64,000 nt of DNA, from assembly GCF_965641715.1 (NCBI RefSeq), contig NZ_OZ282453.1; one strand, written 5' to 3'. The position numbers were made by a program, and so were the translations under genes. Origin of the DNA: Escherichia coli (GTDB taxonomy: Bacteria; Pseudomonadota; Gammaproteobacteria; Enterobacterales; Enterobacteriaceae). The notes under the pieces were generated by a model. That model was given only the letters and a program-made list of their open reading frames with translations, did not search any database and was not told the DNA's origin. Shown here piece after piece: positions 17,132 through 56,100 of this stretch; within the stretch, counting starts at the first letter, position 1; each line of letters opens with the position of its first letter.

Positions 17132-17350
17132 ATGGAAAAAGAGCAGCTGATTGAAATAGCCAATACGATAATGCCGTTTGGCAAATACAAAGGGCGTCGC
17201 TTAATCGACCTGCCGGAGGAGTATCTGCTGTGGTTTGCCCGCAAAGATGAGTTCCCGGCAGGGAAGCTCGGTGAGCTAATGCAAATCACGCTGCTGATTA
17301 AAACCGAGGGGCTGACGCAACTGGTCCAGCCCCTGAAGCGTCCGCTTTAA
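17132..17350 (+). CDS. ypeB: Small conserved protein YpeB (72 aa)
   Basis: ATG at 17132, 1 nt after the ligA stop (MEKEQLIEIANTIMPFGKYKGRRLIDL...); track ORF 17039.. is an extension overlapping ligA. Confidence 0.8.
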   Translation: MEKEQLIEIANTIMPFGKYKGRRLIDLPEEYLLWFARKDEFPAGKLGELMQITLLIKTEGLTQLVQPLKRPL

Positions 17351-18345
17351 GCTTTATCGGTGCTGCTTTCCTGCTGCGCCTGTAACTGTTCGGTCTGGCG
17401 TTTGTATCGACGCGCCAGCACCGCACAGACCATCAATTGGATCTGATGGAAAATCATCAGGGGCAGCACCATCATACCGATCACCGATGTGGGGAACAGA
17501 ATGTTTGCCATCGGGATGCCATTTGCCAGACTCTTTTTCGAACCACAAAAGACGATAGTAATTTCATCTGCCTTATTGAAGCCCAGTCGGCGTGCCATAA
17601 AGACGTTAACTACAATCACGATAGCCAGAAGAACGCAGCTGACCACCACGATAAACAGCAATGATCCCCAGCCAACTTTATGCCAGATACCATTAACGAC
17701 GGCTTCGCTGAACGCTGTATAAACCACCAACAGAATGGACGTCTGGTCAGTTTTCGCAATCCATTTTTTATTGCGCGACACCCAGTCACCAATCCACGGC
17801 CGGGAAAGATGCCCCAACACAAACGGCAGCAGCAGTTGCAGCATAATTTTACCGACCTGCTCAAGGCTGCCCCCTGCACCGTGAACATTCATCACCAGAC
17901 CAACCAGCAATGGTGAAAGGAAAATCCCCAGCAGGCTGGATGCTGACGCAGAACAAACCGCCGCCGCGACGTTACCGCCCGCCATTGACGTGAAGGCGAT
18001 TGCAGACTGCACGGTAGCCGGGAGAATGCACAAGTAGAGAAAACCGGAGTAGAGCATCGGGTCGACATTTACCGGTTTCCACCAGGCAAACAGTACACCC
18101 AGAATCGGAAACAGCACGAAGGTGCTGCACATTACCCACAAATGCAGTCGCCAGTGACCACCGCCAGCAATAATCGCCTCACGCGACAACTTCGCGCCGT
18201 GCATAAAGAACAGCAGGGCAATAGCTGCGGTGGTCAGATTTTCAAAGAAGGGGACGAAATCGCCTCTGGCCGGAAAGAAAGAGGCCAGCAACACCACCGT
18301 GATCAGGGTTAAGGTGAAAGGATCGAGGATACGAAAAAGTTTCAT
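17347..18345 (-). CDS. yfeH: Inner-membrane transporter, bile acid:sodium symporter-like family
   Basis: 332-aa multi-TM ORF; stop overlaps the ypeB stop (convergent, 4-nt overlap). Confidence 0.85.
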   Translation of the reverse strand: MKLFRILDPFTLTLITVVLLASFFPARGDFVPFFENLTTAAIALLFFMHGAKLSREAIIAGGGHWRLHLWVMCSTFVLFPILGVLFAWWKPVNVDPMLYSGFLYLCILPATVQSAIAFTSMAGGNVAAAVCSASASSLLGIFLSPLLVGLVMNVHGAGGSLEQVGKIMLQLLLPFVLGHLSRPWIGDWVSRNKKWIAKTDQTSILLVVYTAFSEAVVNGIWHKVGWGSLLFIVVVSCVLLAIVIVVNVFMARRLGFNKADEITIVFCGSKKSLANGIPMANILFPTSVIGMMVLPLMIFHQIQLMVCAVLARRYKRQTEQLQAQQESSTDKA

Positions 18346-18434: not shown

Positions 18435-19361
18435 ATGAATTATTCTTTAAAACAATTAAAGGTTTTCGTCACAGTAGCGCAGGAGAAAAGTTTTAGTCGT
18501 GCAGGAGAGCGTATCGGCCTGAGCCAGTCGGCAGTAAGTCACAGTGTGAAGGAGCTGGAAAATCATACTGGTGTTCGCCTGCTGGACAGAACCACGCGTG
18601 AAGTGGTGCTTACAGATGCAGGGCAGCAGTTGGCTTTGCGTCTTGAGCGACTGCTGGATGAACTTAACAGCACGTTGCGCGATACCGGGCGTATGGGGCA
18701 ACAACTGAGCGGAAAAGTTCGGGTCGCTGCCAGCCAGACCATTTCCGCGCATCTTATTCCGCAATGCATTGCTGAAAGCCATCGCCGCTATCCAGATATT
18801 CAGTTTGTCCTGCACGATCGTCCGCAGCAGTGGGTGATGGAAAGTATTCGCCAGGGAGATGTCGACTTTGGCATCGTCATCGATCCAGGCCCAGTGGGCG
18901 ATCTGCAATGTGAAGCGATTCTTTCCGAGCCTTTCTTTCTGCTTTGCCATCGCGATAGCGCTTTGGCCGTGGAAGATTATGTACCCTGGCAGGCATTACA
19001 GGGAGCGAAATTGGTGTTGCAGGATTACGCGTCAGGCAGCCGACCGCTGATTGACGCAGCGCTGGCGCGCAATGGTATTCAGGCGAATATTGTGCAGGAG
19101 ATTGGACATCCGGCGACGCTGTTCCCGATGGTAGCCGCAGGCATCGGCATCAGTATTCTTCCCGCACTGGCGCTACCATTGCCTGAAGGTAGCCCACTGG
19201 TGGTAAAGCGCATTACGCCGGTTGTTGAACGCCAGTTGATGCTGGTGCGCAGGAAGAACCGTTCACTTTCCACCGCCGCTGAAGCGTTATGGGACGTGGT
19301 ACGAGACCAGGGCAATGCGCTAATGGCTGGTCGGGAAGGGGATCCGTTGTATCAGATATAG
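18435..19361 (+). CDS. yfeR: LysR-family transcriptional regulator
   Basis: 308-aa ORF with N-terminal HTH ([35 protein letters not shown]) and LysR substrate-binding domain; divergent from yfeH. Confidence 0.85.
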
Positions 19362-19693
19362 ATATCGATATGAGTCGTATTTTCAACAGGATTTAGAAGG
19401 GATACATTCAGAGACAAACGCTGCTCTTTCTCCTGCGCCTTTTCTGCCTGCTGTCTCTGCAACTGCGCCAGTTGTGTTTCCAGTAGGGTGATTTGCTGTT
19501 GAATCAATTCGGCCTGTTTTTGCTTGTCTTCAGCACTGCCGCTAGTGTCTACAATCTCTTTAATTTGTTGAGTGAGTTTGATGATTTGCTGACTTATCCG
19601 CGCGATTTGTGAAGCAACATCGCTACCTTGTGATGCCCTGTTACTACTCTGTGTTTGTATGGAAGGAATTGAAGTTGAAGAGATAGTGGCCAT
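19352..19693 (-). CDS. FlxA-like small Q-rich coiled-coil protein (113 aa)
   Basis: ATG at 19693 with AGGA 7 nt upstream; Gln/Leu-rich heptad region ([35 protein letters not shown]) and C-terminal IDIYI resemble FlxA-family proteins; overlaps the yfeR 3' end by 10 nt. Confidence 0.65.
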
Positions 19694-19721
19694 TGTTCAG
19701 TCCTCGTCACTGTACGAGGTA

Positions 19722-19748
19722 ATATCGGTAGAAGAACAAGGAACTTGA
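19722..19748 (-). promoter_or_regulatory. Candidate sigma28 (FliA) promoter for the FlxA-like ORF
   Basis: Minus strand reads TCAAGTTC-N11-ACCGATAT against consensus TAAAGTTT-N11-GCCGATAA; -10 ends about 28 nt upstream of the ATG. Confidence 0.45.
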
Positions 19749-19781
19749 GAAGAAAAATCAATCTTACAAATCGCAGATAGC

Positions 19782-19808
19782 AAAAAAGCGCCTTTAGGGC
19801 GCTTTTTT
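19782..19808. terminator. Hairpin terminator 3' of lysV (bidirectional shape)
   Basis: aaaaaagcgcc-ttta-gggcgctttttt immediately downstream of the tRNA-Lys 3' end. Confidence 0.65.
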
Positions 19809-19812
19809 ACAT

Positions 19813-19888
19813 TGGTGGGTCGTGCAGGATTCGAACCTGCGACCAATTGATTAAAAGTCAACTGCTCTACCAACTGAGCTAACGACCC
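19813..19888 (-). tRNA. lysV: tRNA-Lys (anticodon UUU)
   Basis: Reverse complement reads GGGTCGTTAGCTCAGTTGGTAGAGCAGTTGACTTTTAATCAATTGGTCGCAGGTTCGAATCCTGCACGACCCACCA. Confidence 0.97.
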
Positions 19889-19892
19889 GAAG

Positions 19893-19968
19893 TGGTGGGT
19901 GATGACGGGATCGAACCGCCGACCCCCTCCTTGTAAGGGAGGTGCTCTCCCAGCTGAGCTAATCACCC
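19893..19968 (-). tRNA. valY: tRNA-Val (anticodon UAC)
   Basis: Reverse complement reads GGGTGATTAGCTCAGCTGGGAGAGCACCTCCCTTACAAGGAGGGGGTCGGCGGTTCGATCCCGTCATCACCCACCA; 4-nt spacer to lysV. Confidence 0.97.
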
Positions 19969-20014
19969 ACTTCGGTACTTCACATTGTTACAAGAAATTT
20001 AGCTGGCGAGAAAG

Positions 20015-20090
20015 TGGTGGGTGATGACGGGATCGAACCGCCGACCCCCTCCTTGTAAGGGAGGTGCTCTCCCAGCTGAGCTAATCACCC
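20015..20090 (-). tRNA. valX: tRNA-Val (anticodon UAC)
   Basis: Identical 76-nt tRNA-Val sequence, second tandem copy. Confidence 0.97.
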
Positions 20091-20134
20091 ACTTCTCAAT
20101 TTCTTGCTACACGGCGGAGACTACATAAAGTAGT

Positions 20135-20210
20135 TGGTGGGTGATGACGGGATCGAACCGCCGACCCCCTCCTTGTAAGGGAGGTGCTCTCCCAGCTGAG
20201 CTAATCACCC
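20135..20210 (-). tRNA. valU: tRNA-Val (anticodon UAC)
   Basis: Identical 76-nt tRNA-Val sequence, promoter-proximal copy. Confidence 0.97.
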
Positions 20211-20227
20211 CCGCTGTGTGGAGTCGC

Positions 20228-20255
20228 ATTATAGGGAGAGTTCAAAATGAGTCAA
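20228..20255 (-). promoter_or_regulatory. Sigma70 promoter of the valU-valX-valY-lysV tRNA operon
   Basis: Minus strand reads TTGACT-N16-TATAAT followed by GC-rich discriminator gcgactcc, about 16 nt before the mature tRNA 5' end. Confidence 0.6.
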
Positions 20256-20468
20256 CGCATTTTCTAAAGAAATTGTTCGTTCGTCGTAAATTTAAGCAAG
20301 ATGATCGCAAAACAGACCGTGTTGCGCAATTTGTCAACGAAAACAATAATGCGTAAGGTAGAAGCCCGAACTACATTGAGGAATCAGGCGGGAGTGATAG
20401 AATATCGCCCACTCAATTTTTCCAGGATTTGCCGGTTGTCGGCATCTTTCTAAACGTAAGGCCATTTC

Positions 20469-21884
20469 ATGAAAATCAAAACTCGCTTCGCGCCAAGCCC
20501 AACAGGCTATCTGCACGTTGGCGGCGCGCGTACTGCTCTTTACTCCTGGCTTTTTGCACGTAACCACGGCGGTGAGTTCGTGCTGCGTATTGAAGACACC
20601 GATCTTGAGCGTTCCACGCCGGAAGCTATCGAAGCCATTATGGATGGCATGAACTGGCTGAGCCTGGAGTGGGATGAAGGTCCGTACTACCAGACCAAAC
20701 GTTTTGATCGCTACAACGCAGTGATCGATCAGATGCTGGAGGAGGGCACTGCTTATAAATGCTATTGCTCTAAAGAGCGCCTGGAAGCGCTGCGCGAAGA
20801 ACAAATGGCGAAAGGTGAGAAGCCGCGTTATGACGGTCGCTGCCGCCACAGTCATGAGCATCACGCTGATGATGAGCCGTGTGTCGTACGTTTTGCTAAC
20901 CCGCAGGAAGGTTCTGTTGTTTTTGACGATCAGATCCGTGGTCCGATCGAGTTCAGCAACCAGGAGCTGGATGATCTGATTATCCGCCGTACCGATGGTT
21001 CCCCAACCTATAACTTCTGTGTGGTTGTCGATGACTGGGATATGGAAATCACCCACGTTATCCGTGGCGAAGACCATATCAACAACACGCCACGCCAGAT
21101 CAACATTCTTAAAGCCCTGAAAGCGCCGGTACCGGTTTACGCGCACGTTTCTATGATCAACGGCGATGACGGCAAAAAACTGTCCAAACGTCACGGGGCA
21201 GTCAGCGTAATGCAGTATCGTGATGACGGTTATTTGCCAGAAGCACTGCTGAACTATCTGGTGCGTCTGGGCTGGTCCCACGGCGATCAGGAAATCTTCA
21301 CTCGTGAAGAGATGATCAAATACTTCACTTTGAATGCCGTCAGCAAATCTGCCAGTGCGTTCAACACCGACAAGCTGCTGTGGCTGAACCATCACTACAT
21401 TAATGCGCTGCCGCCGGAGTATGTTGCTACTCACTTACAGTGGCACATTGAGCAGGAAAATATCGATACCCGTAACGGCCCGCAGCTGGCTGATCTGGTG
21501 AAACTGCTGGGCGAACGCTGCAAGACGCTGAAAGAGATGGCACAGAGCTGCCGTTATTTCTACGAAGATTTTGCTGAGTTCGATGCCGACGCCGCGAAAA
21601 AACATCTGCGTCCGGTAGCGCGTCAGCCGCTGGAAGTGGTTCGTGACAAACTGGCCGCGATTACTGACTGGACCGCTGAAAACGTTCATCACGCTATTCA
21701 GGCGACGGCGGATGAGCTGGAAGTGGGTATGGGTAAAGTTGGTATGCCGCTGCGTGTCGCCGTAACCGGTGCGGGGCAGTCTCCGGCACTGGATGTTACC
21801 GTTCACGCAATCGGTAAGACACGTAGCATTGAGCGTATCAACAAAGCGCTGGCCTTTATTGCTGAACGCGAAAACCAGCAGTAA
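20469..21884 (+). CDS. gltX: Glutamyl-tRNA synthetase
   Basis: 471-aa [33 protein letters not shown]... with HIGH-type and KMSKS-type (KLSKR) motifs. Confidence 0.97.
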
Positions 21885-53171: not shown

Positions 53172-56100
53172 TTAGTCATTTTGCTGACAGAAAACAGCAA
53201 TCTCCTGGTCCAGCTCTGCAATGTGTTCTTTTACAGAGTTCAGCAGCTGAAGAATTTCAGGCTTACTGTCATCTGAAACAGGTGTTATTTCTAACTGATG
53301 GCTAATATTAATCAACTTTTGCAAATTCAGGATGTTAGCCGCACCGTGGATGCGATGAATACACTGATGGAAAGTTCTGTTATCGCCAGCTTGCAGCGCA
53401 TGAAATGCAGCGGGTAGATCTTTATGCGTTTCATGCTGGAAAGTCATGAGAATCTCCTGCATCAGTTGTAGATCGTTCGCCGTATTATTTTTCAGGGCCT
53501 CGATATCAAGGTGGCGATACTGAGGTACAATATGTGCAACCTGGTGTAACTGACTTAAATGTGTTTTCAGTACATCCAGGGTCAACGGTTTGAACAAACA
53601 TAAGTTCATGCCGCAATTTAACCCTTTTTCACGTTCGTTAGCCTGTGCGTTGGCTGTAAGCCCCCAGATGGGTAAGGAAGAATTTTGCTCACGGAGTTTG
53701 CGAGTCAACTCAAAACCATCCATATTCGGCATATTAACGTCAGTAACAAGCAGATCATAATGTTGCATACTGACTTTGTGTAGCGCTTGCACACCATCGG
53801 TGGCTTCATCAACATCATATCCTAATAGATTTAGCTGGCGTTTGAGTAATAGCCTGTTGGTCGGATGATCATCCGCGATTAATATGCTCAACTTTTCAGG
53901 TAGTGTGATAGGTTGTTCTGCTTTTGCCTCGACAGCCGCCACTTGTTGGGTAATTTCTACCGGGATTGTGATCGTAAATGTTGTTCCTATGCCTGGATGA
54001 CTTTCTAATGACAAATCACCCTGCATGTTTTTAATTAATTCTTTGCAGATCATTAAGCCTAAACCAGAACCTGTTTGCTGACGACCTGCACTTGTTTGGC
54101 TATAACGTTTAAACAGTTGTTGTTGTTCTTCCTGTGATAATCCACTTCCAGAATCCATAATCGTCATTTTGATTACAGCGTGGTTGTCATCAATGTGAAC
54201 CAGGGAGGTCGTAATTTTTACTGCCCCCTCGGTGGTAAATTTGAGAGCATTACTCAGTAAATTTGATAAGACCTGCTTAAACGCCTGAGGGTCGATCTTA
54301 ACCAGGTAATGTTCAGGAAACGTACTGCTGCAACTTAATGCGATCGATTTGCTTGCAGCAATCGCACCGAAAGAGTGACAAGTGTTCTGGACTAAAGTAG
54401 GAATATCGACCCATTGTGGTTGAAGTTGATAGTTACCCGATTCAATTTTGTCGACATCAAGGATTTCACCAATTAAGCCGAGGAGTGATTGTCCGGTGGC
54501 GTAGGCAAGTGAAATCGCCTCCACCCGTTGTTCCTTGCTAAGACCAGAACCCGACAGAAGTTCCAGGAAGCCCATAATGGAGCTTATTGGTGTTCTTATT
54601 TCGTGACTCATTGTTGCCAGAAACTGACTTTTTGCGACAGTTGCATTGATCGCTTTATTTCTCTCTACTTCGAGTGCATGAATTAAATCACGCGTCTCGG
54701 TAATATCTTGCCAACCACAAATATAAACAGCATGTTCGCTGGCTGGCAGATTACATAATGTATGCCAGTGATTAATGCATCTTTTCTCGATGCCATTATC
54801 AATTTCAAATACCTGTGTGTATATTGTTCGATTTTCTTTCGTCTCTGCTGTGACTTCATGCGTATTAGAAAAAACATCTTTAAAGGGTGATTCACTGTTT
54901 TCTAATGGCAACATTGCATTTTTGTAGTAATCAGCAGTGAAATAATGTTCAAATGCACTATTGTGACTAATGACATTACCTTGCCAGTTTACAACATAAG
55001 TTGGATTCGGTAAGGAGTCCGAGAGCGCTTTCCGGAATGATATTTGGTTTTCTAAATCACCCTGAATGACTTTACGACGACGAACTGAGCGTAACAGGTA
55101 GAATCCCCATAAAAGGCTACTGCCAACTAATAAAACGGATAATGTCGTAACAATATAAAATTGCTCGCTATAGAGGTCCCATGTGTCAATGGTCACATTG
55201 GGCATTTTAATCCATTTTTCGGTCAGGCGCAGAACTTCGCTTGGGGGGATTGCATTCAGTGCTTTATTAATAATATCCTTAAGTTCCGGTTCTCCGCGAG
55301 GAAAAGCGAACGAAAGCGATGCATTCGGAACGCCGGGAATAAGAAAATGATAAAGTTCATTAGGATAGTAATGGTCGATCATGTAACGTGAATTTAGCTG
55401 TGTCGCGACCAGAGCATCAAGTTCACCTTCCTTGACCTTGTGAAATGCAGCGCTGGCGTTATCGACTTTTATCCACTCTACCTCCGGATACATCTCTTTT
55501 AATTGCGAATGCAGCTCATAATAATATGGAATGGCAACTTTCATTCCTTTTTTTAATGTTTGTTCACTGTCAGGCGCTTTTTGCATGACAAAAACGTAAG
55601 GCGTTGTTATGAAGGCTTCAGCAAATAAAACATTATTTTCTCTATCTTCACTATAAATAGCACCGGGTAATATATCCCATCCGCCGGGATTCAGCTGTGT
55701 TCCAGCATGGATATTGTGTGAAACGGTGATCGGAGAAAAATTTAAACCTGTTTGCAAGGTAATAATATTAAGAATGTCCCCCATAACGCCCCGAACCGAG
55801 CCATTTTCATCCGTCATAGAATAGGGGGGCGAGTAAGGATTTTCCAGCACCTTTAAATCGGGATGCTGCTTAATCCATTGTTTTTCATGTTCAGTGAGTT
55901 CTAATGGTTTGTTCAGAAAGGCCAGGTTTCCTGTATCAAGCCAATTTTGTGATACTTCATAGCGAACTTCATTTGTCAAAGCATCAACAAATCGATTGAG
56001 TACTTCATTAAGAACGACAGATTCTTTTCTGGTCAAGAAAAAATTATATTGACGCGGTGAGTTATAATATTTCACTACATTTAAGGAGTGAGTGAAATAG

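Follow-up and report, generated by a model that had tools for sequence, protein, structure and literature searches.

FlxA of Escherichia coli K-12 (b1566, 110 aa) is the founding member of the Pfam family PF14282, and its gene is named for FliA-dependent expression. The flagellar (FliA) regulon has been defined mostly in K-12, where flxA resides within the cryptic prophage Qin; the gene is also found on phage PhiR42_1. FliA binds at flxA in K-12, and deleting fliA lowers the expression of flxA from 280 to 2 units (PMC4183435). The gene is listed as uncharacterised in a 2024 survey (PMC11551758).

The window analyzed here, the whole stretch of 64,000 nucleotides of E. coli DNA, encodes a 113-aa member of the same family. 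Unlike K-12 flxA, this copy is not in a prophage but has a chromosomal location with synteny conserved between genera. By BLASTP, the window protein and K-12 FlxA share 43% of their residues across 74 aa (E 2e-12), a stretch that corresponds to the helical core. Both proteins have a Ser/Thr-rich N-terminus and end in IDIY(V/I), whereas outside the core the window protein has diverged from its K-12 counterpart.

A chromosomal FlxA family gene between yfeR and lysV

The initial annotation described, between yfeR and lysV, a single minus-strand ORF of 113 aa with a good ribosome-binding site and a C-terminal IDIYI. This gene is found at 19352..19693 (minus strand, ATG start, stop codon included; supported by the ORF list, Pfam and RefSeq); its translation ends in HIDIYI, and a Shine-Dalgarno sequence, GAGG, can be read at 19702..19705 (minus strand), 8 nt before the ATG. 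The upstream flank is lysV, tRNA-Lys(UUU), at 19813..19888 (minus strand; ARAGORN and Rfam), which is encoded on the same strand at a distance of 119 nt and belongs to the tRNA operon valU-valX-valY-lysV; the three tRNA-Val genes lie between lysV and gltX (20469..21884, plus strand). An Rfam scan of 19000..20500 detects the four tRNAs only, with no RtT or other RNA family. The opposite flank is yfeR, a LysR-type regulator (18435..19361, plus strand; ORF list and annotation), next to the ORF of yfeH (17347..18345, minus strand). The yfeR and flxA-like genes converge, and the last 10 nt of yfeR overlap the 3' end of the flxA-like gene (19352..19361). No terminator-like site was found between these convergent genes, so that a yfeR transcript would cross the whole flxA-like gene in antisense orientation and a flxA-like transcript would enter yfeR in the same manner; the first terminator 3' of yfeR is the bidirectional lysV terminator at 19782..19808.

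An hmmscan search started with the window protein identifies similarity to the FlxA profile, PF14282 (E 9.1e-14, 51.8 bits; residues 15-92 aligned to model positions 4-82 of 101), and the remaining Pfam matches are weak coiled-coil hits only. Together with the BLASTP match and the common C-terminal IDIY, this bears out the FlxA-like character first assigned to the protein from its sequence. Precomputed PF14282 matches are present on all close relatives. Among the matches listed, the orthologues have lengths of 111-115 aa and share 55-88% identity with the window protein; they come from Pseudocitrobacter, six Kluyvera species, Pluralibacter, an Enterobacter species and other Enterobacteriaceae. 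An alignment of 15 sequences contains an invariant core, SQIxRIxQQIxxLTQ...KQKQAExIQxQIxxLExQLAQLQ..QAEK, and an equally invariant tail, I-D-x-Y. The dN/dS ratio of the gene is 0.17 when the window is compared with Pseudocitrobacter faecalis, and a pair of Kluyvera species gives 0.04. Given this purifying selection and the constancy of length across genera, the flxA-like ORF is a genuine FlxA family gene that encodes a protein under selection.

Structure prediction points to a helical hairpin. In an AlphaFold2 model built from the 15-sequence alignment, residues ~22-49 and 54-99 form the two helices of an antiparallel hairpin whose core has a pLDDT of 85-93, and both termini are modeled with low confidence (pLDDT <50 for residues 1-22). 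Ser, Thr and Gln abound in the N-terminal segment; together with its low-confidence modeling, this composition is compatible with a disordered export signal but is not specific to one. A Foldseek search against the PDB gives nothing at E <= 0.001; the best match, the FliJ-like hairpin CdsO (E 0.37), reflects generic helical-hairpin similarity and is not taken as evidence. Likewise, a sequence search of the PDB yields designed coiled coils only, which are composition-driven matches, and an NCBIfam scan yields sub-threshold coiled-coil noise, with no curated family above the cut-offs. The protein does match PHROG 11044 (E 4.6e-8), a family without an assigned function. In this case, the fold and sequence searches (Foldseek, PDB, PHROG and NCBIfam) identify no significant relative with a known function.

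Two alleles of the locus and its conservation in other genera

A blastn search of the window against MG1655 reveals homology that ends at 19362 and restarts at 19770, so that a 407-bp segment (19363..19769), containing the body of the flxA-like gene together with its promoter motif, is without a K-12 counterpart. The corresponding K-12 interval comprises 4557 bp with an RtT-like repeat, xapR, xapB, xapA and yfeN, in agreement with the initial annotation, which placed yfeN and xapABR (about 4.5 kb) here in K-12 and noted that none of these genes is present in the window. The 407-bp segment occurs in 1316 of 5426 complete E. coli genomes (nearly full-length in 1307 of them, always chromosomal), and the K-12 junction between yfeN and yfeR occurs in 4073. 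Since these two counts nearly add up to the total, the flxA-like and xap-yfeN forms are two alternative alleles, the K-12 type accounting for about 75% of E. coli; the locus is indeed strain-variable, as had been surmised. Carriers of the flxA-like form include O157:H7, O145 and derivatives of E. coli B. Frameshifted variants exist (P0001, 159 aa; P0007, 95 aa), and of 40 matches sampled from the 1316, 39 are full-length, every one of them with an intact, annotated ORF.

RefSeq annotates a 'FlxA-like family protein' at the yfeR/lysV position in about 1300 complete genomes (e.g., WP_000201414.1 and WP_000201407.1), and the record of O157 Sakai contains ECs_3279 under the gene name flxA with the product 'hypothetical protein'. 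Thus, the initial interpretation is upheld but does not amount to a discovery: this is a common, already annotated arrangement, namely a known gene that forms a well-populated allele of a dimorphic locus. A literature search found no paper mentioning 'FlxA-like' or ECs3279.

Several strains show further variation at this position. E. coli HH97 (NZ_CP116409.1; L005 3644..4860) has a rare third form of the locus with about 1.2 kb between yfeR and lysV, in which only an 86%-identical flxA-like fragment, poly-A/T tracts and a second start-like remnant are recognizable; this strain has only two tRNA-Val genes. In O157 Sakai, ECs_3279 (L024 7113..7454) encodes Gly in place of Asp110 within IDIY, a motif that does not vary among the 15 aligned members; the adjacent yfeR (ECs_3280) is a pseudogene in the same strain, and an internal stop in yfeR is flagged in the O157:H7 strain Wll001. 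Strain LH10-b-1 matches the window with 100% identity across the flxA-like ORF and promoter, and is otherwise identical to it over the aligned region except for an extra 156-bp RtT-like unit between lysV and the flxA-like promoter (L001 3570..3725). This unit duplicates the final 18 nt of lysV and the terminator, and PGAP labels the region 'RtT sRNA'. A similar RtT-like repeat precedes xapR in K-12 (L002 2373..2531), and the window lacks a copy. The insertion point of the repeat (19769/19770) coincides with the breakpoint of K-12 homology at 19770.

Outside E. coli, the gene order gltX, three tRNA-Val genes (valUXY), lysV, flxA-like gene, convergent yfeR, yfeH, ypeB is common to Pseudocitrobacter, Kluyvera, Pluralibacter and related loci, as judged on loci long enough to include both flanks; shorter contigs contain one consistent flank. 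In most of the orthologous loci, the flxA-like gene directly follows the lysV terminator. Altogether, the same gene is present in the same chromosomal synteny, at 55-88% identity, in at least four other genera. Such shared synteny implies vertical descent and a greater age of the flxA-like form; the arrangement in the window appears to be ancestral and the xap-yfeN form of K-12 derived. Two contigs in this set deserve comment. In CAJYVI010000110.1, labeled as a Pseudocitrobacter metagenome-assembled genome, the flxA-like gene differs from that of E. coli by a dS of only 0.10 (0.55 for P. faecalis), which could mean that the gene was recently exchanged with E. coli or that the contig was binned wrongly; the upstream tRNA array of this contig is unusual as well (Lys, Val, Lys, Lys, Lys). 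The contig CACSKA010000009.1, labeled Chryseobacterium sp. 18061, shows the full enterobacterial synteny with a gltX 92% identical to that of E. coli, and its label is very probably due to contamination or mislabeling.

A conserved sigma-28-type motif upstream of the gene

A pair of elements close to the FliA consensus, separated by 11 nt, was reported upstream of the gene when the sequence was first inspected, and it is present exactly as described. The -35 element is TCAAGTTC (19741..19748, minus strand; consensus TAAAGTTT) and the -10 element is ACCGATAT (19722..19729, minus strand; consensus GCCGATAA). Each matches 6 of the 8 consensus bases, and the -10 element ends 27 nt 5' of the ATG. 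A position matrix derived from 52 in vivo ChIP-seq sites (Fitzgerald et al. 2014, Table 2; PMC4183435) assigns this site 15.6 bits, the top score among the 127,946 positions of the window. This value exceeds those obtained for the fliC, ycgR, aer and trg promoters in leave-one-out scoring and falls among the scores of sites occupied in vivo. By itself, the rank carries little weight, as a 15.6-bit site turns up somewhere in 25% of shuffled 64-kb windows. The per-position probability of this score, however, is 2.2e-6, so that a chance match on the correct strand within an intergenic stretch of about 100 nt is unlikely. The pattern of 12 fixed bases T.AAGTT-N13-CCGATA occurs once in the window with 0 mismatches; with at most one mismatch, a shuffled window is expected to contain 0.21 matches.

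In all 15 orthologous loci that were scored, representing at least four genera, the best site has 13.3-21.2 bits and ends 27-30 nt before the ATG. The CCGATA of the -10 element and the TCAAG of the -35 element are invariant in these loci, and the sequence around the motif is unalignable; three orthologues have a 12-nt spacer instead of the 11-nt one. An AGG core of the Shine-Dalgarno sequence, at an identical 8-nt spacing, is likewise shared by 14 of 14 orthologous leaders. The case for a credible sigma-28 promoter is thus carried by position and conservation, the latter being the stronger of the two, and not by rank in the window.

Comparison with described promoters points in the same direction. 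The K-12 flxA gene is preceded immediately by a sigma-28 promoter, TAAAGATT-N11-GCCGATAG, which shares with the motif in the window the 11-nt spacer and an end about 25-30 nt before the ATG; FliA binding and dependence are established for the K-12 gene and are predicted for the window copy from its promoter sequence. The class-3 flgKL promoter, bound by FliA in vivo (PMC4183435), has an identical -35 hexamer, TCAAGT; the ycgR and fliD promoters have the same ACCGATA in the -10 element, and those of modA and motA have the same GATATT ending. The spacer of 11 nt is that of class-3 FliA promoters in general, although the site in the window is identified by motif and conservation alone. Given the conservation of the motif at a fixed distance from the gene and the FliA dependence of K-12 flxA, FliA-dependent transcription of the flxA-like gene is likely.

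The first base of the -10 element (window position 19729) is polymorphic within E. coli. It is A in the window and in E. coli B (ACCGATAT, 15.6 bits), as opposed to the consensus G in O157 Sakai, EC6868 and all other genera (GCCGATAT, 18.7 bits). The substitution costs the allele in the window 3 bits compared to the O157 allele, and it may result in a weaker promoter. Elsewhere in the window, the fourth-best match to the FliA matrix, TCAACTTCAACCACAATGGGTCGATATT (54402..54429, minus strand), differs only in the last base from the K-12 intragenic evgS site bound by FliA in vivo (PMC4183435, Table 2); the evgS site, which the matrix recovers, was part of the training set.

Upstream of the motif, the valU-valX-valY-lysV operon ends in a bidirectional intrinsic terminator, A6-GCGCC-loop-GGCGC-T6 (19782..19808), with fold energies of -19.1 kcal/mol on the minus strand and -15.6 kcal/mol on the plus strand; it is not listed by a simple terminator scan. 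The terminator is retained in most orthologous loci and is predicted to insulate the flxA-like promoter from the tRNA operon. A scan for sigma-70 promoters finds no candidate between this terminator and the flxA-like ATG. Downstream of the motif, the leader contains a possible hairpin, CCTCGT-ACAGTG-ACGAGG (19702..19719, minus strand; MFE -8.6 kcal/mol), which would pair the Shine-Dalgarno sequence. Analogous pairings that involve different bases can be drawn in Kluyvera (CCUUAU/AUAAGG) and Pluralibacter (ACUCC/GGAGU). The pairing probability of the Shine-Dalgarno sequence is high in most orthologues, yet not clearly above that of shuffled controls because pyrimidine-rich leaders pair with the purine-rich Shine-Dalgarno sequence in any case, so that sequestration by such a hairpin is unproven. 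If transcription begins where it typically does at sigma-28 promoters, the transcript might lack the 5' arm of the hairpin; masking would then concern only the transcripts reading through from the tRNA operon.

Alternative interpretations and predicted role

The observations are best explained by a chromosomal paralogue of flxA in the yfeR-lysV interval that is probably a class-3 (sigma-28) gene of the flagellar regulon with a helical-hairpin product. One alternative, which appears improbable, is a real gene whose sigma-28-like motif does not work as its promoter; a sigma-70 promoter or read-through transcription of the tRNA operon would then account for its expression, placing the gene outside the flagellar regulon. 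The short distance to lysV on the same strand is compatible with this possibility, as are the departure of the -10 element from the consensus and the frequency of equally good matches in shuffled windows. However, read-through would have to pass a strong terminator (-19.1 kcal/mol, T6) located between lysV and the motif, the sigma-70 scan offers no substitute promoter, and the FliA motif is the only upstream block that is kept across genera, at a fixed distance from the ATG; moreover, the paralogous K-12 flxA is strictly FliA-dependent (PMC4183435).

It is less probable still that the gene is horizontally acquired prophage cargo (a moron) that, like the Qin copy, was inserted beside a tRNA gene in some strains. 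Apart from the phage association of flxA in Qin and PhiR42_1, this scenario could draw on the fact that tRNA genes are common integration sites, on the dimorphism of the locus in E. coli and on the match to PHROG 11044. Nevertheless, the segment is only 407 bp long and is flanked by yfeR and lysV, without phage or integrase genes; a tblastn search of 50,697 phage genomes with the window protein yields no match; and the synteny with at least four other genera suggests vertical descent, with the K-12 form being the derived one. A prophage-borne location of the copy in the window was rejected on these grounds. Finally, that the ORF is a functionless, decaying remnant and the variable locus a scar left by insertion or deletion of the xap-yfeN block is hardly credible: the frameshifted variants P0001 and P0007, the fragments in the rare HH97 form and the D110G replacement of O157 Sakai in the otherwise invariant IDIY motif all illustrate decay in individual strains, but the ORF is intact in every full-length match of the sample, it evolves under purifying selection, and the promoter motif, the Shine-Dalgarno sequence and the ORF length are maintained across genera.

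Under the preferred interpretation, that of a flagellar-regulon gene, the 407-bp allele would contain a self-contained unit, in which a gene of 113 codons follows a sigma-28 promoter and a short leader that includes the Shine-Dalgarno sequence; the unit is situated just 3' of the valU-valX-valY-lysV terminator and converges on yfeR. RNA polymerase with FliA would start transcription a few bases past ACCGATAT, and would do so only after completion of the hook-basal body and export of FlgM, that is, with class-3 timing like that of K-12 flxA. In the K-12-type allele, this unit would have been replaced by the xapRBA-yfeN block. The earlier suggestion that the locus may carry a gene of the flagellar regulon is in keeping with both the FlxA family match and the conserved sigma-28-type motif, and membership in the regulon appears probable.

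As to the function of the protein, our preferred guess, a possible but doubtful one, is that of a non-essential accessory protein that might be a late substrate of the flagellar type III apparatus. It draws on the low-confidence, Ser/Thr-rich N-terminus and on a lead from K-12, where FlxA in the culture exoproteome rose together with FlgK, FliD, FliC, FlgL and FlgM (PMC6391000). CheY, isocitrate lyase and other cytoplasmic proteins were present in the same exoproteome (PMC6391000), so that lysis could also explain the presence of FlxA. A broader hypothesis, which we consider unlikely, is that FlxA is an ancestral, core-chromosomal class-3 gene of a clade of Enterobacteriaceae, encoding an exported late substrate or an export-gate factor, and that K-12 lost it to xapRBA-yfeN and kept only the prophage paralogue. 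If true, this would account for the impression that flxA is dispensable cargo of a prophage.

Beyond the existing annotation of the gene, the present analysis adds the conservation of a sigma-28-type promoter across genera, the apparent ancestry of the flxA-like form and the absence from K-12 of a probable member of the regulon. The two alleles, xap-yfeN and flxA-like, provide a clean marker for the population genetics of E. coli. For studies of FlxA function, the chromosomal copy is a better subject than the Qin copy because its promoter and synteny are conserved. Given that the FliA regulon was mapped mostly in K-12, which lacks the yfeR/lysV flxA-like locus, O157:H7 and E. coli B/BL21 probably possess one FliA-controlled gene beyond the K-12 map.
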